Shown here: positions 4,334-61,520 of the stretch, piece by piece
How the letters are laid out: the number at the start of each line of letters is the position of its first letter
How positions within the stretch are numbered: the stretch's first letter is position 1
From: an uncultured bacterium
Lineage (GTDB): Bacteria > Armatimonadota > SYMT01
Direction of reading: 5' to 3'
Length of the DNA: 64,000 nucleotides
NCBI GenBank assembly: GCA_964609085.1
Contig: CAZSRZ010000006.1
Location: 12,668 to 76,667 of the forward strand
Translations under genes and position numbers: made by a program
The notes under the pieces: model-generated
Databases searched by the model: none
What the model saw: the letters and a program-made list of their open reading frames with translations, nothing else
What the model was told of the DNA's origin: nothing

Positions 4334-4374
4334 ACCGTCACGCGAGCGCGGAACCCCCGATCCCCAGAAAAGGT

Positions 4375-16037: not shown

Positions 16038-16103
16038 TCACCGCCAGGACGCAGAGGCGCAAAGGGACTCTGTCTTCCTTGCGCCTTCGCGTCCTGGCGG
16101 TGA
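16038..16103. repeat. Long imperfect hairpin (REP-like or bidirectional terminator) between convergent prepilin genes
   Basis: TCACCGCCAGGACGC pairs perfectly (15 bp) with GCGTCCTGGCGGTGA, plus an 8-bp inner stem. A related degenerate element lies at ~15905-15975. Confidence 0.75.
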
Positions 16104-16155
16104 ATGCCCCGGGGTCTGGGTGAGGGGTAGCCCCGGGGGCGACCGAGGATCGGGC

Positions 16156-35712: not shown

Positions 35713-35794
35713 TGATCCGCCCCGCGTTGCTCCTGGTCTCACGTCGTCCTCCGGTTACTCCGCCGGTCATGCTCGACTTCGCCCCGGAATTGAG

Positions 35795-36994: not shown

Positions 36995-37020
36995 GGGCTT
37001 ACTCCTGGAGAGCGCGTCTC

Positions 37021-37434
37021 CTAGTGGTGGTGACCGTGGTCAGGGGCCTTCAGCGGCTTCGCATACTTGCCGGGGTGGGAGTGGAAGGTCTGATGTGACT
37101 TCGCATCGGCGAACAGGAAGATGCCACCGCCATGCGCCATCTTCATGGTTTTGGAGGTGACGGCGAAGGACTTGCCGGTCACCGGGTCCTTCGTCTGTTT
37201 CACGTATTTGGCCGGGTCCTTCTTGATCTCCCCGATGCAACTGGGGCAGCAGACGGACACGAACTCGTTGTTCACCCGAACGTAGGGTGCGTGCGCCCGA
37301 TCCTTGATGGGACCCTTCATCACCGGACAGGTGAGGGGCTTGGCAGCAGTGGGAGCCTTCTCGGCCCTGCCGACGCCGCCGATCGCCGTCACCAGCACCG
37401 CGGCGGCGAGGAGCCAGGTCGATCTCTTGAGCAT
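37021..37434 (-). CDS. Exported YHS/TRASH-domain protein
   Basis: CPVM..CCPSC..DP.KY, a second DPVTG unit, and a C-terminal DHGHHH. Confidence 0.8.
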   Translation of the reverse strand: MLKRSTWLLAAAVLVTAIGGVGRAEKAPTAAKPLTCPVMKGPIKDRAHAPYVRVNNEFVSVCCPSCIGEIKKDPAKYVKQTKDPVTGKSFAVTSKTMKMAHGGGIFLFADAKSHQTFHSHPGKYAKPLKAPDHGHHH

Positions 37435-37506
37435 TACCGGTTCATCCTTTCGGTTGTGGGCTTCCGCCGGAGGACCCGGCAGAAGCTTCTGCGTGCGGAG
37501 GACGCA

Positions 37507-38310
37507 CTATTGCGCCTTCTTTACAAACTCTTCCGGGGGCTTGATGGCTCTAGGATCCTTCTTGACTAGCGCCAGGTATTCCTCAAGGCAGGGCGGGCAA
37601 CAGAAGACGTACTCCTTGCCGGCGATGACCCAGCTCAGTCCAGGGTTTGCCTTGGTCAGGGTGATGGGGCAGATCCTGTCTCCAACAGCGGGACGAAGGT
37701 CGTGGCTGACCTTCACCGATCGGAATTTGACGGCCGGCAGCTGGTTGCCGTTGGCGGCAATGTCCGCCTCCGTGTAGGCGCCGCCGGGTGTGAGATAGAG
37801 GAGCCGATCCTTGGACGTGGCCGGCGCCGCCGCGATGCTGAGCGCTCCGGTGGGGAAGAGGGCCTTGATCGTGCCCAGCGCGGAGAGCATTGCTTTGTGC
37901 TGACGAACCGTCTCCGGGTACTTGCCCGCATCGGCATACCGGTCTAGCTGCTCTGCCAGCCGATCAATGATCCGGATATGCGACTCCAGTTTCTTACGTG
38001 CCACGGCGGAGAGCGACCTGCTCTTGTCCGGCAGGGTGCGGACGAGGTCGCGAATCTCGAAGGCCACGGGGTGAACCTCATCCAGGCGTCTTTCCCGGAC
38101 GAGTACGGCCAGGTCCTTCACCTGAAGCTCAACATCGGCCCACACCGAGGCCGCCTCTCCGTACGCCACGCGGAGGGCGTGGGTGGCCGTTGGGCTCGCC
38201 GGCGGCTTGACCGGAGTCCGAGTGGCACCACGGGCGAATGCCGGCATGGCAGTCAACAACAGGCCGAGCAACGTGAGGCTGAAGATGGGTTGCATGCGGG
38301 TTCCTTTCAT
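37507..38310 (-). CDS. Exported protein with a helical bundle and a C-terminal YHS-like domain
   Basis: Signal peptide, an all-alpha His-containing region, and CPIT..EYVFCCPPC. Confidence 0.7.
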   Translation of the reverse strand: MKGTRMQPIFSLTLLGLLLTAMPAFARGATRTPVKPPASPTATHALRVAYGEAASVWADVELQVKDLAVLVRERRLDEVHPVAFEIRDLVRTLPDKSRSLSAVARKKLESHIRIIDRLAEQLDRYADAGKYPETVRQHKAMLSALGTIKALFPTGALSIAAAPATSKDRLLYLTPGGAYTEADIAANGNQLPAVKFRSVKVSHDLRPAVGDRICPITLTKANPGLSWVIAGKEYVFCCPPCLEEYLALVKKDPRAIKPPEEFVKKAQ

Positions 38311-38313
38311 CGG

Positions 38314-39111
38314 TTAGAAGCTGTAGGAGTAGCCGGCGACGAGGCGGACTCGATCTCTCGCCGCGCCCTTCCAGCCTGCAAGGTCGGATTGGATCCCCAG
38401 ATCCATCACCGATCGGACGCCGACCTGTCGGCGGAGTCCGATGCCGACGCCGAGTACGCCGCCGCTGTCGAATCTCTCGCCGGCACGGATCGAGATCTCC
38501 GCCAACCCGGTCGTGCTGAAGGACGTGGGGTATCCCAGCGGCCGGCTGTAGCCGAGGACGACACCCGGCCGGAACTCGCGATCTCCGGGCGGGGCACCCG
38601 GGTTGCCCTCCAGGTCGAGGTTCAGGTGAACGCGGCCGTACTGGTCCGCCTGCCGACTGGCAATACCGCGAAGCCGGAACGCCACCCCACGCGAGCCGTC
38701 ACCGGTGGGCGCGGCGAGGTCGGCTCGCAGCGCCAGGGCAGGAGTTCGTCCGTGCTCACGGTTGAAGTTGTGGAACAACCCGACCGACACGTCGCCCGGA
38801 TCGACGCCAGACCAGCTGCCGCGCTCCTGACCGCCGATCGCGGGCGCGAAGCCGATGCTGAGGTGGCTATTCAGGCTGAATCCGTAGAGGTATTCGGCGG
38901 ACAGTCCAAGCTTTGTGGAGCGCCCCCTCGCCCAGCCGAGGGCGAGTCCAATTTCAAGGGCCTGTTCCCGAAAAGCTATGGCTCCCGCATCGTCAAAGGT
39001 CAACGGACGGTTGGCGTCCAGGTTATTGTGGTCCACAGCCTGCGCGGGTCCGGCGGTCAGCAGGGCGATGGTGACGAGGGCAAGGAGGGTGTTGTTTCGT
39101 CTCAAGGGCAT
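38314..39111 (-). CDS. Outer-membrane beta-barrel (putative transporter)
   Basis: Signal peptide, alternating amphipathic strands, and a C-terminal GYSYSF. Confidence 0.75.
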   Translation of the reverse strand: MPLRRNNTLLALVTIALLTAGPAQAVDHNNLDANRPLTFDDAGAIAFREQALEIGLALGWARGRSTKLGLSAEYLYGFSLNSHLSIGFAPAIGGQERGSWSGVDPGDVSVGLFHNFNREHGRTPALALRADLAAPTGDGSRGVAFRLRGIASRQADQYGRVHLNLDLEGNPGAPPGDREFRPGVVLGYSRPLGYPTSFSTTGLAEISIRAGERFDSGGVLGVGIGLRRQVGVRSVMDLGIQSDLAGWKGAARDRVRLVAGYSYSF

Positions 39112-40715
39112 CGTGCCGCCCCCTTCCCATCAGCGGCATGGGGCTGGTAGGGATTCTCGACCGGGCCACGCGGCTTGACGTAGGTGTCCGGCTTCTGGCC
39201 CTCGCGTTCGGCCCACGCGACGAACGTGAGCGCCTTGGCGCCGGACAGGTCCGGGTTTGCCCTCACGTAGGCATCGAAGGCGGCGCGGGTGGTGAACGCC
39301 CGTGACCACATATCGCAGCCCGCGTGGCTGGCCTCGCTTTCCAGGAAGACCACGCCGGGTGTTGTGGTCTTCAGGTTCCCCTGCTCATCTGAGGTCACCA
39401 CCACGGTGCGGTACGGGTCCTCGGTGGGGATCCGCAGGAGGGCGCGGCCCTTCGTTTCGGCGGCCATGTCGCGCGCGCAGAGCGGGCACCGCACTCGCAT
39501 CGACCAACCATCGGCGGTCACGGTGGGGTTGCGCCACCAGTCGCCCCCGTCCCAGAGGGGCATCGAGCAGTGGTGGCAGTCCGCCATGCTCATCCAACCC
39601 ATGGACGGCATCCACATCAGATCCGGGGTCATCCCTTTCATCATCCCCATCCCCGGCATGCCGACGAAGTGCCGATGGTCGTGAACTCCGGGGGCGCCCG
39701 CGGGTTGTGCGGACTCGCCCGGTTTCTCACCGCGGTGGGCTGCGGCGGAAACCTCCCAGATTGCCAGCCGGATCTGCTCTTCCTTCCGGGGATCGGACAG
39801 CTCCGGGGAAGCCAGGATGTCGTTCACCATGTCGTGCAGCATGTGCAGGTTGTCGAAGGCGTTGGCGATGTGCGGGAAGCGTGCCGCGAAGATAGGGCTG
39901 ACCTCGGCGAACATCGGCATGAAGGGTCGATCGGTCCGGTACAGCTCCACCCGCCGGTACTGGTCGCCGACCAGGGCATAGGCAGCCTTCTGGTCCTCGG
40001 AGGAGGTCCGGAAGAGCACGTCGTACATCGCGCCCTGCAGCCAGTGGTAGCCCCAGAACAGCCCGTTGACCTTCGGATAGGTTCGTCGAAACTTCCCGCT
40101 GTACGGCCGGCTGTCCAGGTGTTCCATGTTCATGGGAAGCGGCGTGATGGCGTACGGCACGCTTTCAAAGTAGTACTTCCAGAGCCGCTCGATCTCCCGG
40201 TCCTTCTCGGCGTGGGTGAGCCGGCGCGACGCCAGCACGTCCACGGTCTGCGCGTGCAGAACATGGGTCCAGTCGAATACCTGCTCCAGCACGCCGTACT
40301 TGCGGCCGAATGTGGGGGCGATGGCCGCCTCGTCCGGCATGAATCGGGGCGGATTCTTCAGCACGCGGTCAATTCGGCCGAAGGTCGTCGTTTCCAGCCG
40401 AGCGGCTTTCCCGGTCACAAGGTCCTCGTAGGCCATAGCGTGCCCCACCGCCACGGCGTTCAAGTCCCGCGCCAGGGGCTCGTTGTTGTAGACGGCGAAG
40501 TTGTAGGCACCCCGCCGGTAGAAGAGATGATTCTGCTGGGTATTGGTCAGCCAGCCCGGGAGCCCACCGGGGTCGCGAGGTAGTTCCCCAGAAGGCATGC
40601 GGGGCGCGTCGCCATGACCAGAATGGCCGTCCGGCCGGGGCTGGGCCCCGGTCGGACGGGCTGCTGGTGGCAGGCTGATCAACAGCAGCGCGGACACGAT
40701 CCAGGCCTTGTTCAT
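39102..40715 (-). CDS. Exported His-repeat helical protein with a Met-rich linker and a C-terminal NosL-like domain
   Basis: FDWTHVLH / FDNLHMLH repeats, GMPGMGMMKGM, then CHHC..RCPLCA..HAGC..TTRAAF. Start taken at ATG 40715 (signal peptide MNKAWIV). Confidence 0.7.
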   Translation of the reverse strand: MNKAWIVSALLLISLPPAARPTGAQPRPDGHSGHGDAPRMPSGELPRDPGGLPGWLTNTQQNHLFYRRGAYNFAVYNNEPLARDLNAVAVGHAMAYEDLVTGKAARLETTTFGRIDRVLKNPPRFMPDEAAIAPTFGRKYGVLEQVFDWTHVLHAQTVDVLASRRLTHAEKDREIERLWKYYFESVPYAITPLPMNMEHLDSRPYSGKFRRTYPKVNGLFWGYHWLQGAMYDVLFRTSSEDQKAAYALVGDQYRRVELYRTDRPFMPMFAEVSPIFAARFPHIANAFDNLHMLHDMVNDILASPELSDPRKEEQIRLAIWEVSAAAHRGEKPGESAQPAGAPGVHDHRHFVGMPGMGMMKGMTPDLMWMPSMGWMSMADCHHCSMPLWDGGDWWRNPTVTADGWSMRVRCPLCARDMAAETKGRALLRIPTEDPYRTVVVTSDEQGNLKTTTPGVVFLESEASHAGCDMWSRAFTTRAAFDAYVRANPDLSGAKALTFVAWAEREGQKPDTYVKPRGPVENPYQPHAADGKGAARCP

Positions 40716-40729
40716 GGGTGCCACGTCGA

Positions 40730-41227
40730 TCAGCGAGCGGGAGTGGCCAGAGCCACCATCTCGGCCAGAGTGAGCGGCTTCGCGTCGGCAAGCAACTCGT
40801 GATTCGCGTGGATCCACTTCTCGAAAGCAGACCGGGTGGTCAACGCTCGGTAGCCGAGCTGGCAGCTTCGGTGGTTCACTTTTTGCCCCACGAAGACGGC
40901 GCCCTCGGGTGAGGCGGTCCACTTGCCGTCCTTGCGCGCAAGGGTCACGGGCTTTCCCTTCAGCTCGGAGGGCGCGAGGATCGTGATGTCGCCCGTGTAG
41001 CTCTTCGAGTCCTGGAGCGCACAGAAAACACAGCGGTACTCGATCCGCTTCCGGCCACTCTTGAGGGCGACCTCATTGTCGAGCCGATCCGTGTCCTGCA
41101 CCACATCCAACTTGCAGACAGGGCACTTCGCCTCGTGAGCCCTGGCCGTATCGAGCCTCGGTCCGGCGACCGCGATCGCCGCCAGTATGCCGGCGATGAT
41201 CCATCGCCGCGAGATTATGGCATGCAT
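40730..41227 (-). CDS. Exported Cys/His metal-binding protein, NosL-like
   Basis: Signal peptide, CPVC..RCVFCA..HRSC..TTRSAF; AGAGGAG ribosome-binding site. Confidence 0.7.
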   Translation of the reverse strand: MHAIISRRWIIAGILAAIAVAGPRLDTARAHEAKCPVCKLDVVQDTDRLDNEVALKSGRKRIEYRCVFCALQDSKSYTGDITILAPSELKGKPVTLARKDGKWTASPEGAVFVGQKVNHRSCQLGYRALTTRSAFEKWIHANHELLADAKPLTLAEMVALATPAR

Positions 41228-41958: not shown

Positions 41959-44577
41959 TCACATGGACAAGGACCCGGTGGATGCACTGACGTTCCGGTT
42001 GTCGGCGTGGGTTTGTTGGGCAGGGACGTCGCCCGTTCGCGCGGACTGGGACCGAAACCCTCGCAGTCGCAGGCTGTTGGTCACCACCGAGATGCTGGAG
42101 AGAGCCATGGCCGCACTGGCGATGATCGGGGACAGAGTGATGCCGAAGACCGGGTAAAGCGCCCCTGCCGCTATCGGGATGCCCAGGACGTTGTAGAGGA
42201 AGGCGAAGAAGAGATTCTGGCGGATCGTGCGCATCGTGGCCCGTGAGAGCCGGATCGCCGCGACCACGCCCGTCAGTTCGCCGCTCACCAGGGTGATATC
42301 CGACGCTTCCATGGCGACATCGGTGCCTGTTCCGATGGCGATCCCGACATCAGCCTGCGCCAGGGCCGGGGCGTCGTTGATGCCGTCGCCGACCATGCCC
42401 ACCACGTGGCCTGCCTCCTGGAGCATCCGAACCTGTGCCACCTTCTGCTCCGGCAGCACCTCGGCGACGACGCGGTCGACGCCTACCTGCCGGCCGACCG
42501 CCTCAGCGGTGCGCAGATTGTCTCCGGTGACCATAACCACCAGCAGTCCGGCTTCGCGGAGAGCGGCCACCGCCGCGGCTGACCGGGCCTTCACCCGATC
42601 CGCAACGGCGATCACCCCGGCCGCCCGACCGTCCACGGCAGCCAGCATCGGTGTCTTCCCATCTTCGGAGAGCCGGTCCATGCTCTCCAGCAGCGGCGTC
42701 GGGTCGATGCCGCGCTCATCCAACAATCGCCGATTGCCGACGAGCACGGTGCGGCCGTCGACGGTCGCTTCCAGCCCGCGCCCGGTCAGCGAGTTGAAGG
42801 AGGATGCCTGGCTGGGGCTGAGGCCCCGAACCTCGGCGGCCCTGACGATCGCCTCCCCGAGCGGATGCTCCGAGGACTTCTCGGCACCAGCAATCAACCC
42901 CAGGAGTTCCGCCTCGTCCCATCCGTCAGTAGGTATGACATCGGTCAGTTCCGGTCGCCCTTCGGTGATCGTGCCGGTCTTGTCCAGGATCAGGGCGGTG
43001 ATCTTGTGCGCTGTCTCCAGGCTTTCACCCCCACGGATCAAGATGCCGTTTTCGGCACCGCGGCCGGTGCCGACCATCACCGCGGTCGGCGTCGCCAGGC
43101 CCAGAGCGCAGGGGCACGCGATGATGAGCACCGAGACGAAGGCGATCAGAGCCTGCTGAAGCCGCGTTTCCACCGGGGCCAGCGTCATCCAGAGGAAGAA
43201 CGCGACGACGGCGATCCCCAGCACCCCCGGCACAAAGACACCGCTGATGACGTCCGCCAATCTCTGGATCGGAGCCTTGCTGCCCTGAGCCTCCTGCACC
43301 AGCTTGATGATCTGCTGCAGAGCAGTCTCCTTGCCCACCTTCGTCGCTTCGAGCCGGAAGGCGCCGGTTCGGTTAATGGTGGCACCGAAGACCTCATCCC
43401 CCGGGGCCTTCTCCACCGGTAGGCTCTCGCCGGTCAACATCGACTCATCCACCGCGCTCCCGCCGAACCGGACGACCCCGTCCACGGGGATCTTCTCGCC
43501 TGGTCGGACCAGCACCAGATCTCCGGCGGCCACATCCTCGACGGGGATCTCGAGCTCCGCCCCATCACGCAGCACATGGGCGGTCCGCGGTTGGAGCCCG
43601 ATCAGGCGACGAATCGCGTCGCCCGCTCGAGCCTTTGCACCGGCCTCCAGCATCCTGCCGACCAGGATCAAGGCGATGATCACGGCTGCTGCCTCAAAGT
43701 AGACGGGTGCCATTACCGGGCCGTGGCCGCCGCCGTGAGCGTGGGTGGGAACGACGAGCCCGGGAAAGAGGGTCGCGATGACGCTGAAAACGAATGCGGC
43801 CCCGGTGCCCATGGCGATCAGGGTGTTCATGTCCGCCGAGCGGTGCCAGAGGGCACTCCAGGCACCACGGAAAAACGGTGCTCCTGCATAGGCGAGGACG
43901 GGCGTCGTGAGCAACATCTGGACCCAGTGGTTGCCGGGGAAATCCAGGTGCAGCATGGCGAGGACCGTCACAGGCAACCCGAAGACCAGAGCGACCCAGA
44001 AGCGGCGGCGGAGGTCCGCGTACTCTCGCTCACGGGCAACCCGTTCCCAATCCTCATCGCCAACGCCCGCCGCCTCCGCCTCGATGGGCGTGGGCGGTTC
44101 CAGCGCGTGTCCCTCGCTGACGAGGGCCTGCCGTACCGCGTCCGGCTCCGTGAGGCCGGGGAAATACTCGACCACCAGAACCTGGTTGGCCTCGTCAAGG
44201 GCGGCACTCACCACGCCGCGCAGTCGAGCAGCCGTCTCGACAACCCCCGTAGCCTGCTCCGCGCCTGCCGGGGTCAACCGAATCCGAGCCTCAGCCGTAC
44301 CGGCCGTACCATAGCCCGCCCGCCGGATGGCACCGACCAGCAGCCCGGTGTTCGTCTCCGTCGGCTGATAGGCGATCGTCGCCTGGTGGGCAGCGAAGTT
44401 CACCCCGGCCTCGGTCACGCCGGGAGTGCGGCGGAGCACCTTCTCGATACGGGCAGCGCACGCCGCACAACTCATCCCCGTCACTGGAACCGTGATCTGC
44501 TCGTCCGCCGTCCCCTCGGGGCCAGCCGTCGGACCGGATTGGCCCTCGCGGACCACTGACCCCATTGAGCCTGCCAT
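41959..44577 (-). CDS. copA: Cu(I)-translocating P1B-1 ATPase
   Basis: [38 protein letters not shown] and AMALSS; GAGGTG ribosome-binding site before ATG 44577. Confidence 0.95.
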
Positions 44578-44624
44578 CGCACTCACCTCGTCTCCCCTCC
44601 GAGCGCCTGTCGGCCGGATGTCCA

Positions 44625-44686
44625 ATACCCTATGGGGGTATACCAGCGCCAACACTTTTATACCCCCTACGGGTATGACCTGTCAA
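44625..44686 (-). promoter_or_regulatory. copA promoter with two CsoR-type operators
   Basis: Minus strand TTGACA (44686-44681)-N18-TATAAA (44662-44657); ATACCC-N5-GGGTAT at 44625-44641 and 44660-44676. Confidence 0.85.
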
Positions 44687-45005: not shown

Positions 45006-47486
45006 CTAGCCCAGGTTCCGCTTCGGGGAGTCGTCCGGCCCGTAGCCGGGAATCGGCACCGGAGGATGTTCGAGATCGAACACCCGTGGCGTGCCCATCT
45101 CAACCATCCGCCTGGCGGCGGCCTCGAGGAGCGACTTGCCGTTGGCGCCGTCCGCAGGGTAGGCAGCCAGGCCGTAAACCACCTGCGACTGCGTCCCCGC
45201 GTGGGAGCGCGTGCGACAGTGGGCCACGATACGATCCGAGATCACCGCCGCGTCGATCTGGTTGCAGCGAGGGAGGACCACCGCAAAGTCGCCGTCAGCG
45301 GTGTGCGCCACAAAATCTCCCTCGCGGAGGGCGTCCCGTAGGTGGGCGGCGAGGCCCGTGCGGCTTCGCCGGAGCGACTCCTCCGTGTGCCGCGAGGTCG
45401 CCGATTCCCCGATCACCAACACGGCGAACTCTTCTTCCCGCGTCTGGGCGATGGTGACCTGCGAGTGAAGGAACTGGAGCAGGTTCACGCAGCTCGGGAG
45501 GCCCGTGACCGGATCGTTGACGAAGGCCCGAGACTGCGCCTCCAGGACGAGGGCATACGGGTCGGACTGCGATAGGAACTGGGCCAGGAGCTGCAATCGG
45601 TCACCGTGTAGCTCCCGGTAGACACTGTAGCTGCTGTGGTAGGCCGCAAGCACGCCGAGGGTCTTGCCCCCGACAACAATGGGCGCGGCGAGCGCGCTGC
45701 TGAGCTCCAGGTTCTCGCCCGGCCGGACGCGGCGGGAGAGGTCCATCCCCGCAGCGACATTGATGACGGACCTGCCGGTGGTCGCTACATACCCGCTCAT
45801 GCCTTCCCCGAGGTGAATCTCCAGCCCGTCGAAGAGCTCACGCCAGTCGCCTTCCACGCTGATCGGGGTGAGCGTCCGCCGCTCCTGGTTCACAACATAG
45901 AGCACGAGCGTCGAGAAGGGAATGTGCGGCTTGATGGCGTCCACCAGATCAGCGGACAGCATCGGGGCGCCTCGGGATGCGATGGGGAGGGCATTCAATT
46001 CCTGAAGGAATTCCTCCTCGGACAGGGGTTGGTCCAGTTGGGCCACTTGCAGACTCGCAACCCGCTGGGCGAGGATTTCCACCACCGAGGGCTTCTCCGC
46101 CGGCGCATCCTGGGCGAGTTGCTCGATGGCGGCATCCATCTCCGGCAGGGACTTGATGAAGATCTTGGTCAGCTCCGGGTCGAATTGTGTGCCGGCGTTG
46201 GCGCGGATCATGTCTAGCGCTTGTTCCTGCCTGACGGCCCGTCGGTACGGCCGGTCCGAGGTAAGGGCGTCGTACATGTCGACCAGCGACAGGATGCGGG
46301 CCCCGAGCGGAATCTGCTCCCCGCACAGGCCGTCCGGATACCCGAGCCCGTCCCAGCGCTCGTGATGTCCCCGGACGATTGGCACCACGGGCCAGGGGAA
46401 GTCGACCTGCTCGAGGATCGCCACCCCCATGGCCACGTGTGACTTGATGATCTCGAACTCCGACGCCGACAGCTTGCCGCGCTTCAATAGGATCTGCTCG
46501 GGGATGCCGATCTTCCCGATGTCGTGTAGGAGCGCCGCCGCCCGGATCGCTTCCAGGTCTCCACCGGTGATGCCCAGGCGCGTGGCAACTCCCACCGCGT
46601 ACTCGCGCACGCGGTTCACGTGCTTGTGCGTGTGGGGGTCCTTCGTCTCGATGGCCATCGCCAGGCTGGCGATCATCGCCTCGTTGAGGCGATTGACCGT
46701 GCCCATGTGCTCCATGTCGGCCTTCAGCTTCTGGCTGCGGACGTTGAATGAGTAGTAGATGATGTAGCTGAGCGGCGCCAGGATTAGGATGGCGATGCCG
46801 GGTAGTTGAAAGGGGAGCCAGCTCGTCACACAGACGACCACGGCACCGATAGAGGCGCTGGCGGCAAACCCCGGCCAGGCCCAGGCGAAGTATTCGCGGA
46901 AGGTGGCCCAGGCCTGGCGCTCTTGCGACCACGCCATGGCCACGGACATGCCGATGGCGTTCACCACGTAGAATGCCATCGGCGGTGCCGCCAGGGCTCC
47001 CCAGTTCAGGTTCTGCACCTGCAGCGGAAACTCGCCACGGAGGAGGTGGTGCACCGCGGCCATCGCCCCGATGCCCAGGATCAGGTTGGAGAGGTTGTAG
47101 AGTGCCTGGTAAGTGAGAGACTTACGAATCTGGATGTGCCAGCCTTGCTCCCCATGTCGGAGCGAAACGCCGCCGATCACACCGAAGAGGCTCACCAGCA
47201 CCGCAGCCGAAGGGCCGAGGATGAGGAACGTGTAGTAGGTGACCGTGAAGGTGAGGGTGATACAAGCCTTGCCGGCGCTCGGGTCGACGCGTGCGGCACC
47301 AGCCACCAGCCCGGCGAAGCAGAGCAACCCCAGCATTCCCCAGTCGGCAACGGGGAACGTGCTCTCCAGCCAGAAGGTCACCCCGATGGCACAGCATGCC
47401 TGGATAAGGATCCAGGCGCGAAGCTTCCTCGCCAGACGGTCAAACCGCATGGCGCCTGGGTTCCGTATGCTGCCGAGAAACTTCAT
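45006..47486 (-). CDS. Membrane-bound HD-GYP phosphodiesterase with GAF and degenerate GGDEF domains
   Basis: About 6-7 N-terminal transmembrane helices; KDPHT, LLHDIGK, HHERWDGLGYP and DMYDAL..RPY; a GAF domain (GEGMSGYVA); GGDEF replaced by ADGDF. Confidence 0.9.
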   Translation of the reverse strand: MKFLGSIRNPGAMRFDRLARKLRAWILIQACCAIGVTFWLESTFPVADWGMLGLLCFAGLVAGAARVDPSAGKACITLTFTVTYYTFLILGPSAAVLVSLFGVIGGVSLRHGEQGWHIQIRKSLTYQALYNLSNLILGIGAMAAVHHLLRGEFPLQVQNLNWGALAAPPMAFYVVNAIGMSVAMAWSQERQAWATFREYFAWAWPGFAASASIGAVVVCVTSWLPFQLPGIAILILAPLSYIIYYSFNVRSQKLKADMEHMGTVNRLNEAMIASLAMAIETKDPHTHKHVNRVREYAVGVATRLGITGGDLEAIRAAALLHDIGKIGIPEQILLKRGKLSASEFEIIKSHVAMGVAILEQVDFPWPVVPIVRGHHERWDGLGYPDGLCGEQIPLGARILSLVDMYDALTSDRPYRRAVRQEQALDMIRANAGTQFDPELTKIFIKSLPEMDAAIEQLAQDAPAEKPSVVEILAQRVASLQVAQLDQPLSEEEFLQELNALPIASRGAPMLSADLVDAIKPHIPFSTLVLYVVNQERRTLTPISVEGDWRELFDGLEIHLGEGMSGYVATTGRSVINVAAGMDLSRRVRPGENLELSSALAAPIVVGGKTLGVLAAYHSSYSVYRELHGDRLQLLAQFLSQSDPYALVLEAQSRAFVNDPVTGLPSCVNLLQFLHSQVTIAQTREEEFAVLVIGESATSRHTEESLRRSRTGLAAHLRDALREGDFVAHTADGDFAVVLPRCNQIDAAVISDRIVAHCRTRSHAGTQSQVVYGLAAYPADGANGKSLLEAAARRMVEMGTPRVFDLEHPPVPIPGYGPDDSPKRNLG

Positions 47487-47814
47487 GGGGCGATCGGCTC
47501 CCCGGACTAACGGGAGCCGTGAGAGAGAGCGTAGGACGCTTGCCTGTGCGTCCGTTGTTCCCCTGCTTTAGCCCGCGATTCCTGCGTCCGGGTCCCATCG
47601 CATCCCCCACACACCTGGCCAGCAAGGCATCGGATGGAAGTGTCGCAAGAAAAACCCAACATCCAAGGGGCTGCGCGGGGAGGAGCGCCACGGTATTTGG
47701 GAGTAGTCTCACTTACTGCTTCACGTGGCCCGTTTGCAGACGGCTCCACGTGGGAACAGAGAGTCAGGGCTGGAGAGGTCGGGGCGCCCCAACTCCCGTA
47801 CAGGAGGGCACCCC

Positions 47815-47910
47815 ATGGAATACGATCTGGTCCTCGAGATCGAAGAGCTCGAGGAGCGAACTGCCCCCGCCTTCATCTGGCTTCCCCCGGATGAGGGTGT
47901 CGGCCCCTAA
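47815..47910 (+). CDS. 31-aa putative precursor peptide MEYDLVLEIEELEERTAPAFIWLPPDEGVGP
   Basis: AGGAGG 7 nt before ATG 47815 and a TAA ending at 47910. The acidic leader ends EELEERTAP. It lies directly upstream of an RRE-peptidase fusion. Confidence 0.8.
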   Translation: MEYDLVLEIEELEERTAPAFIWLPPDEGVGP

Positions 47911-48162
47911 GTCAACCAAGTCAGCGATCAACACCCATCTCGCGAGATAGCTCCTGTTGCAGCAGTTGCTCCCCCGCGGACGACAACGGGAAGGCCGTGA
48001 GGTAGAGGCCGGCACATGCCGGCCGCAAGCCCCACGGTTAACCCCCGAAACCAACAGACATTCTGGCGCCCAAAGTCGACCTCTCCAGTCCCTTTTTTCC
48101 CTGCACCGTTGATGATCCGTTGTCTCCCGATTGGCTGAACCAGCCGCTTTCGGCAGACATGA

Positions 48163-50961
48163 TTGGGGTCTGCAAGAACCGTGCCAATCGCCACGCTGCG
48201 GGCGGCCGGCCAGGACCGCGTGCCCACGATGCCGTTCACGGAAGCTGACGCTCCCCAGCGACGCGCCCAGGTCGTGTTGCGTCCCTTTCTGGAGCCCGGA
48301 CGGGTGCAGGTGCTGGATCATGCCTCGGGTCGCCGATTCGGCGTGGGCGAAATCGAGGCCCACATCCTGAAGTCCCTGGACGGCATGACGACGCTCGGCC
48401 AGATCGCGGCCTCGATTCCGCGTGAGTTCCCCGGCGTGCGCGGATCGGTGGAAACCGTCGTGCGGTTTGCCGACCGACTTGAGGCTCTCGGTCTTCTCGA
48501 AGGATCCACCGCGCAGCGGGGATCCCGACGGCGGATCCCGCTGTTCCGACGCCTCGCAAAAGTGATGTCGCCTCCCATTCCCGCGGAGGGGCTCTACCGG
48601 TTGCTTCTGCCGCTCGTGCGTCTGGCTTATCGGCCCTGGGTGCTGGTGGTCTTGCTGATCGCGGTCGTGTGGGCCGGCTACGAATCGTTCTTCGACCGCG
48701 TCGCCTTGCTGGACTACGCTCACCTGTTCCAGCGAGGGACCGGCCTCCTCGCCGTCGTCGCCGGGATTGCCCTCATCGGCCTGATTCACGAACTCGGCCA
48801 CGGGCTGACGTGCCGTTACTTCGGGGCACCCAGCCGCGGGATCGGCTGCTTTTTCATCTACGGCATTCCGCTGTTTTACTGCGACGTGAGTGGCGCCTAC
48901 GATCTGAGCTCGCGCAGCCAGCGCATCGCCATCGACGCGGCGGGGCTCGGCTGGCAGCTCACCGCCGGCGCCGTTGCCTATCTCGGCTGGCGGGCCCTGG
49001 AGCCCGGTTCGTTCCCTGCGCTCATCTGCCAGGTGATGCTAGGGACCTGCGGCGCGATGTCGCTGATGAACCTGAACCCATTCATCCGGATGGACGGCTA
49101 CTATCTGTTGAGTGACTTCTGGAGCATCGCGAACCTGCGGGAGAAGTCGATCGGCTTTTTCCAATGGAAGATGGCTGCGATCCTCTGCGGGTCGCCCTCG
49201 CCGCGGGCTCGGTCGAGCCGCGAAGCGCGCATCTTCTTCTGGTTTGGGCTCCTGTCATCCCTCTACACCACTCTGCTGGTGTCGCTCTTGCTCTACTTCG
49301 TTTCTCGGTGGATGCTGTCACACTGGCACGGCACCGGGGCGGTTGTGTTGGGGTTCATGCTGATGAGCATCGCTGTCTCCTGGGCCAGGTCCACCGTGGC
49401 GCGCAGCCTCGCGCAGAGCAGCTCCGCGGGAGCGTCACCCACACCGCCGACTCCGCCCGAGGCCGGGACGGCGCCGCGGTCCTCTGCCGGGCCACGGCCG
49501 CAGGCGGCCGTGTCACCCGAGGGGCCGCCGCCATGGAAGCTGCCGCGCGCCCGCTTCACGCTGCTCTTCGTGATCCTCGCCATAGTCTGGTTCTGGAATG
49601 CGAAGTGGCACTTTTTCATCGCCAGCCCCTGCACGCTGGAGGCCTGGGAGCGAGTACCGGTCCGCCCGGCCGTGGAAGGCGTGCTGCGGAGCGTTCCCTT
49701 CAGCGAGGGGGACGTGGTGCGCCGGGGGGAGCTTCTCGGCGTCCTGGAATCGGCGGATCTCTCCAGCGCGCGGACCCAGGCCCGACAGAAGGCGCAAGCC
49801 GTCCAGGCCGTGGGGGACGCGATGGAGTTGGAAGCCCCCGTCACCCGATTGGAGAAGGAGCAGGCGATCATGTCCGCTCGGCAAGAGGTGCGGGCAGCGA
49901 GGGCGGATCTCGACAACATGCTGAGCGAGTTCCCGGCTCGTCTCGCCGAGGCCGATCGGCAGTTGAGCGAGGCCGGCAAGGCGGTCGATGCCGCGGAGTT
50001 GGTCGCGAAACGTCTCCGGGTGGATGAACGCGCCATGGCCGACGGCAACCTGCCACCGAACATGCAGGCCATCGCCGAGCGCATCCAACGTGTGGACGCT
50101 CAGCGGCGGCTGGCCGCGACGGATCTCCGGCGTACCGAAATCCTCGTGGGCGAGGGTGCGCTGCAGCGCCAGAAGTTGGACTCCGCGCAGGCGGATCTAG
50201 AGCAGTTGAGCCGTGATCGCGCCGCGCTGGAGAGTGAGCTGCGACAGGAGATGAAGGCCCTCCGAGAACGGCGGGAGGATGCGGAGGCCGAGGTGGAAGC
50301 GCGGCTGGCGGCCCGGCGAACCGCGGAAGAGACGCTGGAGCGGGTGCGACGGGAGACGCGCAACCAGAAGCTGGACGCCCAACGCGACGAAGTGCGAGCC
50401 CGCGAAGACCTTCTCGCCGCATCCATCAGCCTCCGGGCCGCGGCGGACATCAAGCGGGCCCAGGCACAGGCGAAGCGGCTGGAAGCTCGCCCTCTCGTGA
50501 CGGAGATCGGTCGGTTGGATCGGAAAATCCGAGAGACTCGGGTGTTGGCGCCCGCGTCCGGGATCATCAGCACACCCCGCCTCCGGGAGCGCGAAGGCAA
50601 GAAGTTCAACACCGGCGAGACGATTGCCTGGATTGACGAGGTGGATCGCCTGCGGGCTCGCGTCTTCGTGGACGAGAAGGAGATCGGCTTCGTGCACCTG
50701 GGGCAGGTGGTCCAGGTGAAGGTCGGGGCCTTCCCGGACCGGCTGTTTGAGGGCACGGTGCTGGAACAGGCCACGCGCGCTTCGGACAGGGGCGGGAAAC
50801 CCAGCTACGAGGTGATTCTGCGGATCCAGAACTCCGACCGCACGCTCCGCCCGGGGATCACCGGCTACGCCAAGGTGATCGTCGGCGATCGCCCGCTGCG
50901 CGAGGTCGTCTTCCGCAAGCTCATTCGCTACTTCCGGACCGAGGTCTGGACTTGGTTCTGA
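48163..50961 (+). CDS. Fusion of a PqqD/RRE-like domain, a site-2 (M50) intramembrane metalloprotease and a HlyD-family adaptor
   Basis: ILKSLDGMTTLGQIA...RLEALGLLEG (winged-helix RRE-like); IHELGHG (HExxH) and NLNPFIRMDGYY; VRPAVEGVL..EGDVV, a coiled coil, VLAPASGII and VDEKEI. Confidence 0.88.
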   Translation: MGSARTVPIATLRAAGQDRVPTMPFTEADAPQRRAQVVLRPFLEPGRVQVLDHASGRRFGVGEIEAHILKSLDGMTTLGQIAASIPREFPGVRGSVETVVRFADRLEALGLLEGSTAQRGSRRRIPLFRRLAKVMSPPIPAEGLYRLLLPLVRLAYRPWVLVVLLIAVVWAGYESFFDRVALLDYAHLFQRGTGLLAVVAGIALIGLIHELGHGLTCRYFGAPSRGIGCFFIYGIPLFYCDVSGAYDLSSRSQRIAIDAAGLGWQLTAGAVAYLGWRALEPGSFPALICQVMLGTCGAMSLMNLNPFIRMDGYYLLSDFWSIANLREKSIGFFQWKMAAILCGSPSPRARSSREARIFFWFGLLSSLYTTLLVSLLLYFVSRWMLSHWHGTGAVVLGFMLMSIAVSWARSTVARSLAQSSSAGASPTPPTPPEAGTAPRSSAGPRPQAAVSPEGPPPWKLPRARFTLLFVILAIVWFWNAKWHFFIASPCTLEAWERVPVRPAVEGVLRSVPFSEGDVVRRGELLGVLESADLSSARTQARQKAQAVQAVGDAMELEAPVTRLEKEQAIMSARQEVRAARADLDNMLSEFPARLAEADRQLSEAGKAVDAAELVAKRLRVDERAMADGNLPPNMQAIAERIQRVDAQRRLAATDLRRTEILVGEGALQRQKLDSAQADLEQLSRDRAALESELRQEMKALRERREDAEAEVEARLAARRTAEETLERVRRETRNQKLDAQRDEVRAREDLLAASISLRAAADIKRAQAQAKRLEARPLVTEIGRLDRKIRETRVLAPASGIISTPRLREREGKKFNTGETIAWIDEVDRLRARVFVDEKEIGFVHLGQVVQVKVGAFPDRLFEGTVLEQATRASDRGGKPSYEVILRIQNSDRTLRPGITGYAKVIVGDRPLREVVFRKLIRYFRTEVWTWF

Positions 50962-51587
50962 ATCGGGCCCCATTCGTCATCGGCATCGCGGGCGGTACCG
51001 GATCGGGAAAGACGACCGTCGTTACGGCTCTCATCGAGGCTGTCGGGGAGCAGCGGGTCGTCCGGCTGGAGCAGGACTCTTACTACCGCCATCGTGCCGA
51101 GCTGACCCCGGCCGCTCGCGCGGCCCTGAACTACGATCACCCGGATGCCCTGGATCTCGACCTCCTCGCCCACCATCTCCGCGAGTTGCGATCGGGACGC
51201 CCGGTGGAGACCCCCACTTACGACTTCCGCACACACCTGCGGAAAGCAACGGGCCGGAGGCTGGAGCCGCGGGCCTGCGTCGTGGTCGAGGGGATCCTGG
51301 TGCTCGGCAGCGCGGAACTCCGTGCGCAGATGGACCTGCGGCTCTACGTCGAGACCGACGCCGACATCCGCTTCATCCGGCGCCTTCGCCGAGACACCAT
51401 CGAGCGCGGCCGGACCGTAGAGAGCGTGATTGAGCAGTGGGAGCGGGCTGTCCGCCCCATGCACCTCGAATACGTCGAACCGAGCCGGCGGCACGCCCAC
51501 CTTATTGTCCCGGAAAGCGGAGGCCCAGAGGCGTTGGAGGTTCTGCTTAGTCGCGTCCGCGCCGTGCTGGGGTTGAAAGCCGGCTAG
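50952..51587 (+). CDS. udk: Uridine kinase
   Basis: GIAGGTGSGKTT, QDSYY, NYDHPDA, EGIL and RRLRRD..ERGR. Confidence 0.95.
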   Translation: MVLNRAPFVIGIAGGTGSGKTTVVTALIEAVGEQRVVRLEQDSYYRHRAELTPAARAALNYDHPDALDLDLLAHHLRELRSGRPVETPTYDFRTHLRKATGRRLEPRACVVVEGILVLGSAELRAQMDLRLYVETDADIRFIRRLRRDTIERGRTVESVIEQWERAVRPMHLEYVEPSRRHAHLIVPESGGPEALEVLLSRVRAVLGLKAG

Positions 51588-60761: not shown

Positions 60762-61520
60762 GTGCAGGTGATCCGCGAGTTGTGGGCCGGTTGGCGGCAC
60801 CCGGACCGGCGCCGGGAGTGCCCGATCTGCGGCACGGTCTCAGCCCTCTTCGGTCCGGTCGGCCAGTCGAACCCTCTGCTCACCGAGCTGCAGGTGGTCG
60901 GTGGCGGGCGCCGCCTGCATGTGGTCTGCCCGCGCTGCTGCTCCACGGACCGCGAGCGGCTGGTCTACCTCTACCTGCGCGATCAGGGTTGGTTCCAGCC
61001 CCGCCGCGAGCGAATCCTGCACGTCGGTCCGGAGAGATCGCTCGGGGCCGTCCTCACCAGGACGGCGGGGTTGAGGTATGTGTCGGCGGATCTGAAGTTG
61101 CGACGGGCACGGCTGCGGGCGGACCTCACCTCCCTGCCTTTCGCCGACCGCGCCTTCGGCCTGGTGATCTGTAACCACGTGCTCGAGCACATCCCCGACG
61201 AGGGAAAGGCGTTGGCCGAGATCCGCCGCGTCCTGGAACCGGGTGGCCAGGCGGTCCTCCAGGTGCCGATCAGCTCGGCTCTCACCCACACTCGCGAGGA
61301 CCCCTCGATCACCGATGCCGAAGGACGCCATCGCACGTTTGGCCAGGCGGACCATGTACGCCTCCACGCCCGCGACTATCCTGATCGTCTGGCAGCGGCT
61401 GGATTCTCCGTCACCGTTCTGGATCCCGAGGAAACCTGGGGCCGGGAAACGATGCGCCGCTACGGGCTCATTCGGGGTGAGCGCCTCCACACGGTCCGCA
61501 TCCCGCCCGGGCAGGACTGA
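60762..61520 (+). CDS. Class I SAM-dependent methyltransferase with N-terminal Cys pairs
   Basis: CPICG..CPRC, ILHVGPE, ADLTSLPF and CNHVLEH..LEPGG. Confidence 0.85.
   Translation: MQVIRELWAGWRHPDRRRECPICGTVSALFGPVGQSNPLLTELQVVGGGRRLHVVCPRCCSTDRERLVYLYLRDQGWFQPRRERILHVGPERSLGAVLTRTAGLRYVSADLKLRRARLRADLTSLPFADRAFGLVICNHVLEHIPDEGKALAEIRRVLEPGGQAVLQVPISSALTHTREDPSITDAEGRHRTFGQADHVRLHARDYPDRLAAAGFSVTVLDPEETWGRETMRRYGLIRGERLHTVRIPPGQD

Follow-up and report, generated by a model that had tools for sequence, protein, structure and literature searches.

A precursor peptide, a putative RRE-M50-HlyD fusion protein and a predicted c-di-GMP phosphodiesterase encoded together in an uncultured bacterium: a candidate peptide-signalling locus

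Double-glycine exporters such as CvaAB-TolC (colicin V) and RaxABC (RaxX) consist of a peptidase-containing ABC transporter, an HlyD-type adaptor and TolC. The site-2 protease Eep of enterococcal and streptococcal pheromone systems is an M50 enzyme that yields a short, unmodified hydrophobic signal peptide; it acts on lipoprotein signal peptides or SHP precursors, the ABC transporter PptAB exports the product, the receptors are cytoplasmic RNPP/PrgX proteins and the hosts are monoderm. Polytopic peptide sensors of the AgrC/ComD type have a histidine kinase as output, and in the DSF system of Xanthomonas (RpfC-RpfG) the signal is a fatty acid and a hybrid histidine kinase phosphorylates a soluble REC-HD-GYP protein. 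To our knowledge, outer-membrane-bearing bacteria offer few well-documented cases of linear unmodified peptides as signals or of HD-GYP enzymes under direct ligand control, and all characterised HlyD-type adaptors work with an energised partner of the ABC, MFS or RND type. Daptides are matured by an RRE-fused site-2 protease (DapP/MpaP), and their leader motif ELExMEAP ends with proline at position -1 (doi 10.1101/2023.03.08.531785).

Organisation of the locus and comparison with described systems

Analysis of a 64-kb stretch of DNA (64,000 nucleotides; hereafter the window) confirmed the compact divergent module of three genes proposed in a sequence-only reading of the same DNA: an HD-GYP gene on the minus strand and a 31-aa micro-ORF and a fusion gene on the plus strand. 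The features of the locus, with the evidence for each, are as follows.

45006-47486, minus strand: HD-GYP/GAF/degenerate-GGDEF gene, 826 aa (Pfam)
45087-45539, minus strand: degenerate GGDEF domain, approx. aa 650-800 (alignment)
45570-45908, minus strand: GAF domain, aa 527-639 (Pfam GAF_2 7.9e-10, GAF)
46170-46664, minus strand: HD-GYP catalytic domain, aa 275-439, with HDIGK and HHERWDGLGYP (Pfam HD_5)
46737-47486, minus strand: N-terminal polytopic membrane domain, aa 1-250, candidate input domain (hydropathy and positive-inside rule)
47487-47814, strand not applicable: divergent intergenic region (sequence and alignment of seven loci)
47815-47910, plus strand: precursor peptide gene, 31 aa (Shine-Dalgarno site, homologous micro-ORFs, codon-position differences)
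47815-47868, plus strand: leader MEYDLVLEIEELEERTAP (motif common to daptide precursors)
47869-47907, plus strand: predicted core AFIWLPPDEGVGP (daptide-like cut after Ala-Pro)
47988-48044, plus strand: stem-loop between precursor and fusion gene (RNA fold)
48163-50961, plus strand: RRE + M50/S2P + HlyD/EmrA-type fusion gene, longest ORF (Pfam, NCBIfam, alignment, AlphaFold model, Foldseek)
48271-48489, plus strand: putative PqqD-like RRE domain (AlphaFold secondary structure, sub-threshold PqqD match)
48586-49419, plus strand: M50 intramembrane metalloprotease core (NCBIfam, motifs)
49540-50958, plus strand: TM anchor (49540-49599) and periplasmic membrane-fusion-protein domain (Pfam, NCBIfam, PDB, Foldseek)
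50952-51587, plus strand: udk, uridine kinase (Pfam PRK 1.1e-39)

The flanking genes are copA (41959-44655), udk and feoAB. The start of udk overlaps the end of the fusion gene by 10 nt, and the two genes are probably co-transcribed. Among about 45 ORFs across the 64-kb window that were scanned with Pfam there was no tailoring gene of the radical-SAM, YcaO, lanthipeptide, Fe-ADH or aminotransferase type, no ABC transporter, no histidine kinase (HisKA and HATPase are absent from both the module and the window) and no TPR-RNPP gene, in agreement with the earlier statement that tailoring enzyme, ABC transporter and histidine kinase are missing. A lone methyltransferase gene is located at 60762-61520, 10 kb from the module. 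A TolC was invoked by the sequence-only reading, and a TolC-family gene lies at 27656-29254; the sole RND pump and OEP of the 64 kb are part of a Cus/Czc-like operon apart from the module (27656-35742). No energised inner-membrane transporter (ABC, MFS or RND) was found in or beside the module, and no conserved partner was found in related loci; a tripartite type-1-like exporter was rejected for lack of such a partner to the adaptor. Gram-positive-type peptide quorum sensing (Agr, ComCDE, RNPP) was likewise rejected, since the module and the window contain neither a histidine kinase nor an RNPP receptor.

As in daptides, the window protein has a predicted N-terminal RRE fused to an intramembrane M50 protease. 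Its N-terminal half matches NCBIfam daptide_HExxH (NF041824; 1.1e-47, 163 bits) over almost the whole length of the profile (positions 4-370 of 379), and the window leader, E L E E R T A P, is in the same register as the daptide leader, E(-8)L(-7)D/E(-6)..A(-2)P(-1). This score falls short of the equivalog threshold (163 vs 300 bits; relatives score 198-238 bits), which marks the window protease as a homologue and not an equivalog. The locus further differs from daptide clusters in that DapB (DUF-RRE), DapC (Fe-ADH-type), DapD (aminotransferase), DapM (methyltransferase) and ABC transporters are absent from the 64 kb, the core has no terminal Thr, and the protease is extended at its C-terminus by an HlyD-type adaptor of about 480 aa, whereas DapP (about 380 aa) has none. 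Judged by sequence, the maturation half of the locus belongs to a known kind, the DapP/MpaP logic of daptides, and to a large cassette family; the earlier claim of a design matching no described system was too strong for this half.

Double-glycine exporters resemble the locus in that the leader peptidase forms one physical unit with an envelope-spanning apparatus including a membrane fusion protein, and in serving a small ribosomal peptide with a leader in a diderm. However, their peptidase is a C39 cysteine protease on the ABC transporter, whereas the present module has an M50 metalloprotease on the adaptor, a leader without Gly-Gly and no ATPase. The YydH/LiaK epipeptide maturation protease (NCBIfam NF058609; matches weak, 2.9e-05 to 3.8e-13) is likewise an M50 enzyme serving one small ribosomal peptide, but the window lacks a radical-SAM epimerase and an ABC exporter, and YydH lacks RRE and HlyD domains. 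Eep is similar as an M50 protease making a short unmodified hydrophobic peptide and differs in having no RRE or adaptor. The DSF/RpfC-RpfG system offers a precedent for what is proposed here, a cell-cell signal that lowers c-di-GMP via an HD-GYP phosphodiesterase; the present module, in contrast, has no kinase or receiver domain, and its HD-GYP protein carries its own membrane domain. Like AgrC/ComD-type sensors, this protein crosses the membrane many times with very short loops outside and is encoded beside a peptide and its processing protein, but its membrane domain has no sequence similarity to theirs.

Precursor peptide and fusion protein

The translation of the 31-aa ORF is MEYDLVLEIEELEERTAPAFIWLPPDEGVGP, and a Shine-Dalgarno sequence (AGGAGG, 47802-47807) lies 7 nt ahead of its ATG. 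Homologous micro-ORFs were found at the equivalent position in eight distinct related loci, all with SD-like sites, and across these eight loci the differences in the 14 leader codons number 52, 31 and 184 at codon positions 1, 2 and 3, respectively. Because of this shared position, the SD-like sites and the third-position-rich differences, the micro-ORF is almost certainly a real precursor gene; the acidic leader is conserved and the tail variable, which bears out the earlier identification. The leader consensus L(-12)E I/V E E L E E R I/T A P(-1) is near-invariant among 119 profile matches. Resemblance of ELEERTAP to the daptide motif with P at -1 leads to the predicted core AFIWLPPDEGVGP, exactly the 13-mer named earlier for a cut near ERTAP; by daptide precedent, cleavage after AP is probable.

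Comparison of related cores revealed that only the first four residues (x-hydrophobic-I/V-W) are conserved, the N-termini being AFIW, AFIW, MAVW, NAIW, NAIW, FSIW, HIIW and QIII, and that the tails range from 2 to 18 residues (MAVWDD, NAIWGD, FSIWDE and HIIWEP among them). The active peptide may therefore be much shorter than 13 residues. Whereas cores elsewhere in the wider family are hypervariable, the core N-terminus here is conserved, which fits a dedicated partner; conservation of the first core residues could alternatively reflect P' preferences of the protease. The window peptide ends in EGVGP, a C-terminal Thr occurs in none of the eight related cores, and the cores lack the Cys/Ser/Thr patterns typical of tailoring. 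A leaderless heptapeptide (MHVIWDD-like) is also encoded in five related loci and could not follow the leader-dependent route.

Alignment with homologues indicates that the fusion protein probably starts at the ATG at 48229 and not at 48163. In the AlphaFold2 model, residues 31-103 form three strands followed by three helices (E31-35, E41-46, E51-56, H57-65, H72-82 and H90-103; pLDDT mostly 62-88); this RRE region falls within the daptide_HExxH alignment. PqqD (PF05402) is sub-threshold in the window protein (E 0.0042, 17.8 vs 23.4 bits) and gives weak or faint matches on homologues including P0003, P0007, P0008, P0009 and P0012. The M50/site-2 protease motifs HExxH and NxxPxxxxDG are present as HELGH (48787-48801) and NLNPFIRMDG (49069-49098), both invariant in 12 homologues; the window protein stays below the threshold of Pfam M50 (PF02163; 20.1 vs 27.2), a match recorded for many homologues. 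The adaptor half passes the cut-offs of HlyD_D23 (51.1 vs 30), HlyD_3 (39.9 vs 22.2) and RND_mfp (TIGR01730; 102.8 vs 94.9), matches EmrA (3.8e-14) and MacA among PDB sequences, and has EmrA (7e-17), MacA and AcrA as best Foldseek matches. It shows the features of an HlyD-type membrane fusion protein, namely a TM anchor (helix 454-473 in the model), a lipoyl/barrel-sandwich domain, long helical hairpins (helices 525-784) and a beta-barrel, and it ends in an invariant C-terminus, RTEVWTWF. The three-part architecture described by the sequence-only reading, a putative RRE, M50 and HlyD, is supported by the daptide_HExxH match, the RRE-like fold of the model and the HlyD models. The fusion protein is very probably the leader peptidase of the 31-aa precursor, while the chances that the peptide is exported via the fused adaptor appear about even.

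HD-GYP protein and the proposed circuit

The HD-GYP protein is predicted to be a c-di-GMP phosphodiesterase, since it contains an HD_5 domain (3.2e-42, 144.6 bits, aa 275-439) with the HD and HHExxDGxGYP motifs; LLHDIGK and HHERWDGLGYP are intact and invariant in an alignment of seven orthologues. The orthologues are 40-50% identical and are divergent from the peptide gene in six other loci. Of the HD-GYP sensor described earlier, the catalytic and TM domains were found as stated, and our analysis adds a GAF domain and a partial GGDEF domain. All six orthologues that extend this far have the GAF domain; the L020 copy is truncated by a contig end. The GGDEF match is partial (Pfam 1.3e-08, aa 712-796), with a degenerate A-site (ADGDF) and a retained RxxD I-site (REGD) five residues upstream. 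The same combination of degenerate A-site and conserved RxxD is found in L001, L003 and L019; other A-sites are HGSQF, SSTEF and STAGF, and the domain is missing from the L002 and L008 orthologues. Identity as a diguanylate cyclase was rejected, as ADGDF stands in place of the GG(D/E)EF active site.

Hydropathy and the positive-inside rule, applied to the alignment, predict about eight TM helices in the membrane domain, with N-in and C-in topology and periplasmic loops of at most 12 aa. Invariant polar and aromatic residues include N131, Y173, N176, W186 and W223; apart from such conserved intramembrane residues, no other recognisable sensor was seen in this domain. It matched no Pfam family, PDB entry or AI-2E transporter, and a homologue search with the domain as query found nothing.

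The region common to the HD-GYP and precursor genes (about 330 bp) holds a conserved G4-N-C4 palindrome at 47781-47790 in the alignment of seven loci. The stem-loop at 47988-48044 (-36.9 kcal/mol, z = -5.6, with none of 200 shuffles equally stable) has no U-tract terminator, and hairpins occur at the equivalent place in related loci; it is possibly an attenuator or a transcript stabiliser.

We favour, with a probability of roughly 40%, the reading that the locus is a cassette for leader-dependent maturation and release of a peptide and that this cassette has become linked genetically to a c-di-GMP phosphodiesterase. In the proposed mechanism, the cytoplasmic RRE would bind the leader of the precursor and the intramembrane protease would cut after Ala-Pro, as in daptides. 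In the freed core AFIWLPPDEGVGP, function would reside in the x-hydrophobic-(I/V)-W at the N-terminus, ahead of a tail that is acidic or rich in Pro. The fused adaptor, presumably oligomeric and docked on a TolC-family channel, would pass the unmodified peptide out, and the membrane domain of the HD-GYP protein would respond to it by altering c-di-GMP hydrolysis, while further input would come through the GAF domain and the I-site of the degenerate GGDEF. Gene neighbourhood by itself makes it likely that the HD-GYP protein is functionally coupled to the peptide cassette; that it is the peptide receptor is, on the same evidence, a tentative proposal. The most far-reaching version, in which RRE-S2P-HlyD fusions are self-contained ABC-free maturation and export machines that in this clade release a short, linear, unmodified autoinducer read directly by the HD-GYP membrane domain, is unlikely.

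A divergent gene pair sharing a 330-bp control region is typical of a regulator and its target, and the HD-GYP protein has cytoplasmic inputs of its own (GAF, and the degenerate GGDEF with its RxxD I-site). It could accordingly be a regulator and not a receptor, with local c-di-GMP setting the expression or activity of the cassette and with an antimicrobial, surface-active, adhesive or matrix peptide as product. Other secretion and biofilm outputs are under c-di-GMP control, the majority of the wider family's cassettes do without an HD-GYP gene, and the MFP halves weakly resemble bacteriocin/RiPP exporter adaptors (DarC, NHLM_micro_HlyD and bacteriocin_acc). However, no c-di-GMP riboswitch or other Rfam element was found in the locus and no c-di-GMP effector domain (PilZ or similar) was found in the fusion protein by Pfam and NCBIfam; a short, conserved, unmodified x-hydrophobic-I/V-W core would be unlikely as an antimicrobial or structural peptide, and the phosphodiesterase would have a large orphan membrane domain with no ligand. 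This explanation has about one chance in four.

Signalling might also act in cis, without export, the core or leader freed by the M50 protease inside the membrane or at its cytoplasmic face acting there on the HD-GYP protein of the same cell (at its membrane or GAF domain). The HlyD-like domain would then be no conduit but a sensor or scaffold spanning the envelope and gating proteolysis, in the manner of regulated intramembrane proteolysis. SpoIVFB and RseP are classic signal-transducing M50 proteases, the transporter or energy source is absent, the GAF domain is cytoplasmic, and the leaderless MHVIWDD-type mini-ORFs would put the same motif straight into the cytoplasm. The C-terminal half is nevertheless a complete adaptor (lipoyl, barrel and long hairpin) whose nearest solved relatives all bridge to TolC-type channels, and the Gly-rich repeat cores of the wider family resemble secreted products. 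In L020, moreover, a 141-aa protein exported by Tat/Sec is predicted to begin with HIIWEP in its mature form, which points to an extracytoplasmic site of action. Action in cis is improbable.

Related loci, the wider family and significance

The divergent triad is kept in seven distinct loci (the window, L001, L002, L003, L008, L019 and L020), with proteins 40-53% identical and differing outer flanks. In an eighth locus (P0012; fusion 34% identical) an HD-GYP/GAF/GGDEF gene lies downstream on the same strand. L005 has no HD-GYP gene upstream and its contig stops just past the fusion, L007 has neither an adjacent HD-GYP gene nor a micro-ORF, and outgroup cassettes lack the HD-GYP gene; the linkage is specific to one clade. 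Synteny of the HD-GYP gene, on which the earlier proposal depended, thus holds in seven loci and persists as linkage in a different arrangement in the eighth, within a sample of roughly ten related metagenomic loci of common ancestry. This near-constant pairing in related genomes suggests a new peptide-signalling circuit.

Although the triad loci all come from one group of related metagenome-assembled genomes, 2 of 185,579 species genomes matched (in a scan with only two exact peptide patterns, FYCDVSGA and RTEVWTWF), udk is also often kept downstream (four of seven loci: the window, L001, L002 and L019, not L003, L008 or L020), a modified RiPP class has a homologous protease, and L008 has Fe-ADH and methyltransferase genes a few genes downstream, it is very unlikely that this is an ordinary RiPP or bacteriocin locus with tailoring and transport genes elsewhere and an HD-GYP adjacency that is meaningless inherited synteny, since the triad persists while the outer flanks differ at every locus, the 34%-identical relative keeps the HD-GYP gene in another order and orientation, the cores have neither the daptide C-terminal Thr nor tailoring-type patterns, no tailoring gene occurs in the 64 kb and the L008 pair is not conserved elsewhere.

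Searches with the peptide profile gave 1,504 small-protein matches, and 5,813 protease clusters were found at E<=1e-10, most of the best 150 being of fusion length. The same leader with other cores (Gly/Ser/His-rich, GYEGQPGNQG-repeat or Cys-rich) is encoded directly upstream of RRE-M50-HlyD fusions in L006, L013, L015 and L017/18. By these similarities, the window cassette represents a small branch within the very large precursor + RRE-M50-HlyD family, on which our literature search found no paper. The family, defined by its LE(I/V)EELEER(I/T)AP leader, is abundant in metagenomes, and the leader is an easy handle for mining a large set of small secreted peptides, for example those with cores of these three kinds.

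A compact three-gene unit that joins peptide signalling to an HD-GYP enzyme would be a simple test system, requiring a single peptide, a single processing protein and a single enzyme whose output can be measured. If the fusion does export its peptide without an ATPase, this would change the view of type-1-like secretion, and RRE-S2P-HlyD fusions would constitute a new type-1-like secretion branch serving thousands of two-gene cassettes. If, in addition, the released autoinducer is read directly by the HD-GYP membrane domain in this clade, this would be the first described peptide-to-c-di-GMP quorum circuit of a diderm bacterium.

Three-gene unit and its precursor peptide

The sequence-only reading had described a compact divergent unit of three genes, and our analysis confirmed this unit in the window, flanked by copA and feoAB and by udk. 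The features are as follows.

45006-47486 (-), gene for an 826-aa HD-GYP membrane protein
47815-47910 (+), precursor micro-ORF encoding MEYDLVLEIEELEERTAPAFIWLPPDEGVGP, with AGGAGG 7 nt 5' of the ATG
47988-48044, stem-loop in the precursor-to-fusion spacer (-36.9 kcal/mol, z -5.6)
48163-50961 (+), gene for the RRE-M50-HlyD fusion (longest ORF; likely start ATG at 48229)
50952, start of udk, which overlaps the fusion end by 10 nt (50952-50961)

Homologues of the micro-ORF were found directly upstream of fusion homologues in eight distinct related loci, with a Shine-Dalgarno-like site at every one. Comparison of the 14 leader codons across the eight loci revealed 52, 31 and 184 differences at codon positions 1, 2 and 3, a bias that indicates purifying selection on a protein; the precursor small ORF is a real gene. 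In daptides, a RiPP class whose leader peptidase joins an RRE to a site-2 protease, the precursor leader reads ELExMEAP and proline is residue -1 (Ren et al. 2023, doi 10.1101/2023.03.08.531785). The window leader ELEERTAP lies in the same register, so cleavage after Pro18 is the best prediction by analogy and would leave the core AFIWLPPDEGVGP. Among the cores of the HD-GYP-linked clade, conservation is limited to the first four residues (AFIW, AFIW, MAVW, NAIW, NAIW, FSIW, HIIW and QIII), followed by an acidic or proline-rich tail of 2 to 18 residues. Since only these four residues are conserved, the active peptide probably amounts to a short motif at the N-terminus rather than the entire 13-mer.

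A second, leaderless mini-ORF of seven codons occurs just after the precursor, or overlapping its stop, in five related loci, each with a Shine-Dalgarno-like site or a stop-start overlap. The encoded peptides (MLVVWDD, MHVIWDD twice, MFLIWDE and MHVIWDE) each repeat the core motif. This mini-ORF is absent from the related loci L001 and L005 and from the window, where only degenerate traces are left at about 47931-47951. Locus L020 encodes a 141-aa protein (2328-2753, +) that has a Tat/Sec-like signal (MSLTRRSFAALAVSAVAAVALATAAAA) and no Pfam family; its predicted mature N-terminus is HIIWEPGESY, and HIIWEP is the core of the L020 precursor.

Analysis of the related loci also revealed one to three plus-strand hairpins whose UUGCCG hexaloop is invariant and whose stems of 5-11 bp covary, restricted to the peptide-fusion transcript region and mostly located between peptide and fusion. 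Of the cells, 90% were paired compared with 50% in shuffles, none of the 500 shuffles being as good, and the hairpin has no Rfam family. The mini-ORFs, the L020 HIIWEP protein and these hairpins are side observations that would fit a short N-terminal motif as the functional unit.

Table. Leaderless mini-ORFs and plus-strand UUGCCG hairpins by locus
L001: hairpins with loop 7439-7444 (hairpin about 7428-7455, an extra one just 5' of the micro-ORF), 7714-7735 and 7846-7867
L002: mini-ORF 7612-7635; hairpin 7650-7671
L003: mini-ORF 7609-7632; hairpin 7719-7740
L008: mini-ORF 7422-7445; hairpins 7489-7510 and 7540-7561
L019: mini-ORF 3624-3647; hairpins 3662-3683 and 3747-3768
L020: mini-ORF 2045-2068; hairpins 2088-2109 and 2164-2185
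Window: hairpins at equivalent places, 47949-47970 and 48007-48024, degenerate, with diverged loops

A G4-N(1-4)-C4 palindrome or mini-hairpin (window 47781-47790), preceded by an AAGA(A/G) stretch, lies about 25 nt 5' of the precursor start and is conserved at matching positions in L001, L002, L008, L019 and L020; it may serve as an operator or as an element of the 5'-UTR. An intrinsic terminator after the precursor was rejected, as there was no consensus match and the strong hairpin present has no U-tract. Rfam search of the window, L004 and L012 at E<=1 gave no c-di-GMP riboswitch and nothing else relevant.

Daptide-like protease fusion and the wider cassette family

The fusion follows the precursor after a spacer of 318 bp. 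In its N-terminal part, three strands and three helices make up a PqqD-like domain; the M50 metalloprotease core in the middle contains HELGH and NLNPFIRMDG; and the C-terminal part consists of a disordered proline-rich linker, one transmembrane helix and a complete HlyD/EmrA-type periplasmic adaptor. The N-terminal half matched the NCBI daptide intramembrane metalloprotease model over nearly its full length (1.1e-47), at a score of 163 bits that falls under the 300-bit equivalog cut-off; relatives scored 198-238 bits. Apart from the protease motifs, the most conserved stretch of the protein is its C-terminus, R-Y-x-R-T-E-V-W-T-W-F (50935-50958), which shows little or no variation among 12 homologues with identities as low as 34% and is modelled, at low confidence, as a terminal helix.

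The cassette resembles daptide loci in its leader motif and in its predicted RRE and site-2 protease architecture. Unlike in daptides, its core lacks a C-terminal threonine, no daptide tailoring enzymes or ABC transporters occur in the 64 kb, and an additional adaptor of about 480 aa is fused to the protease; the locus is therefore not a daptide system. The earlier view that the design matches no described system fails for the protease-leader pair, whose RRE-S2P logic was already described for daptides. Two related loci carry further genes near the cassette: Fe-ADH and methyltransferase genes reminiscent of daptide enzymes downstream in L008 (11072-13116), not conserved elsewhere, and a MacB-like ABC/FtsX pair about 3 kb downstream in L001 (14001-18085), not conserved in the other loci.

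Micro-ORFs with the same leader and very different cores also precede more distant RRE-M50-HlyD fusions (26-42% identical), as the following peptides illustrate.

L006: MRHLNLELEKLEQRIAP-GGVASCGGGGSKGSNGS...
L013: ...NIERLEERIAP-DGGGNGQLGYEGQPGNQG...
L015: ...LQLEALEERLAP-CGCDCCGCGP...
L017/18: ...LDVEQLEERIAP-SVPPGQLGYEGQPGNQGG...

A peptide profile, with 8,000 candidates scored, retrieved 1,504 small proteins at E<=10. Among the best matches the leader L-E-(I/V)-E-E-L-E-E-R-I-A-P is nearly invariant, and GYEGQPGNQG repeats occur in 108 of the best 120 of the 1,504. Peptides of 50-90 aa with the LE(I/V)EELEERIAP leader and a core of two GYEGQPGNQG repeats form a very abundant class, and in other classes the core is Gly/Ser/His/Lys-rich or Cys-rich (P0046-P0165, L013, L017 and L018). 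Exhaustive search with the RRE and M50 domains as query identified 9,921 clusters (50% identity) at E<=1e-3 and 5,813 at E<=1e-10, and most of the best 150 matches have the length of the fusion (700-870 aa). Judged from these matches, the window cassette is one branch of a very large precursor and RRE-M50-HlyD family. NCBIfam holds no model for the leader-bearing peptides, and neither the fusion nor the peptides turned up in the papers covered by a literature search on domain combinations and peptide motifs. The GYEGQPGNQG precursor and M50-HlyD cassettes of L017 and L018 each have an AI-2E family transporter gene (PF01594) immediately upstream (7629-8723 and 3824-4918, respectively), whose product might serve as an inner-membrane partner in that branch.

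HD-GYP membrane protein and its linkage to the cassette

About eight membrane helices joined by very short loops make up the N-terminal 250 or so residues of the HD-GYP protein; within this domain intramembrane asparagine and tryptophan residues are conserved, and no other sensor was recognisable. The HD-GYP domain is intact (HD_5, 3.2e-42; HDIGK and HHERWDGLGYP present) and is followed by a GAF domain and a partial GGDEF domain with a degenerate active site (ADGDF) and an RxxD inhibitory site kept five residues upstream. The membrane domain matched nothing in Pfam or PDB, and as sole query it gave zero homologues at E<=0.01. Its single-sequence structure model (pLDDT 41) was set aside.

Close full-length homologues of the fusion number about a dozen among 5.8 billion protein clusters; a scan of GTDB species genomes returned only two MAGs, both already found, and a metagenome scan added six short contigs. 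An orthologous HD-GYP/GAF protein is encoded divergently from the micro-ORF in seven loci (window, L001, L002, L003, L008, L019 and L020). At the locus of P0012 (contig JGI 3300056388), a fusion 34% identical, an HD-GYP/GAF/GGDEF gene lies downstream on the same strand with two small ORFs of 66 and 71 aa between, a rearrangement that argues against merely inherited gene order. L005, whose contig ends just past the fusion, has no HD-GYP gene upstream, L007 has neither peptide nor HD-GYP gene, and the outgroup cassettes are without the HD-GYP gene. Genes outside the triad vary across the seven divergent loci (copA, a DNA-processing gene, STAS, PLDc_N or SLT). The HD-GYP coupling is therefore clade-specific and exceeds local synteny, within a set of few, related, metagenomic loci, and it withstood the refuting condition set by the sequence-only reading, a lack of synteny in homologous loci. 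The window and L001, which share the AFIW core, also have the closest membrane domains (41%), a match among seven loci only that phylogeny could explain.

A pyrimidine-metabolism neighbourhood recurs around the cassette: udk overlaps the fusion stop in L019 too (6694-6703) and follows the fusion in L001 and L002, and the divergent neighbour in L005 (1-7110) is a pyrimidine operon (pyrR-like, pyrB, pyrC, carA). In the window, a Cus/Czc-like tripartite efflux operon (27656-35742, -; OEP, RND pump and adaptor with a YtkA domain) forms a metal-resistance neighbourhood with copA (41959-44655, -) a few kb away. Five consecutive ORFs (35795-40922, -; 399, 137, 267, 265 and 606 aa) have coding-like GC3 and no Pfam match; PADLOC scans of four of them (399, 267, 265 and 606 aa) and of the unannotated neighbours gave no match. 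A perfect tandem duplication (4327-6489 and 6490-8652; period 2,163 bp; at most 8 mismatches, all at the edges), each copy holding a 489-aa and a 162-aa ORF without Pfam or PADLOC match, may be genuine or may have arisen in assembly. The window also has genes for a Pup ligase and a proteasome subunit alongside DUF1559/N-methyl pseudopilin-like and DUF1501 genes (1559-4107, -; 15159-17067; 26270-27649), a mix that partly accounts for the differing labels of two related MAGs, one Actinomycetes and the other Armatimonadota.

Proposed circuit and its alternatives

The observed gene content, intact catalytic motifs, leader/core architecture and conserved linkage fit a circuit in which the RRE would bind the precursor leader, the M50 site would cut after Ala-Pro, the fused adaptor would dock on a TolC-family channel to release the peptide, and the eight-helix domain of the HD-GYP protein would respond to it, with further input from the GAF domain and from the degenerate GGDEF domain that has kept its I-site. 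The Cus/Czc-like operon indicates a diderm with TolC-family channels, and the genome's TolC-family gene (27656-29254) lies within that separate operon.

Export and reception are the weakest steps of this circuit. To our knowledge, every characterised HlyD-type adaptor needs an energised transporter, and the module has none. The HD-GYP membrane domain was rejected as the missing transporter, since hhalign against the outgroup-flanking AI-2E transporter gave a probability of 0.2%. The same data also fit three alternatives: an HD-GYP protein that controls the cassette without being the sensor of its product, cis-acting intramembrane signalling with no export, and a conventional RiPP whose tailoring genes are remote.

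The interpretation first proposed was supported in part, and the signalling circuit itself would still stand on guilt by association only. The maturation half follows the RRE-S2P leader peptidase scheme of daptides, with an export adaptor fused on and the tailoring enzymes gone. Coupling of such a unit to a membrane HD-GYP phosphodiesterase seems not to have been described before and merits experimental work.
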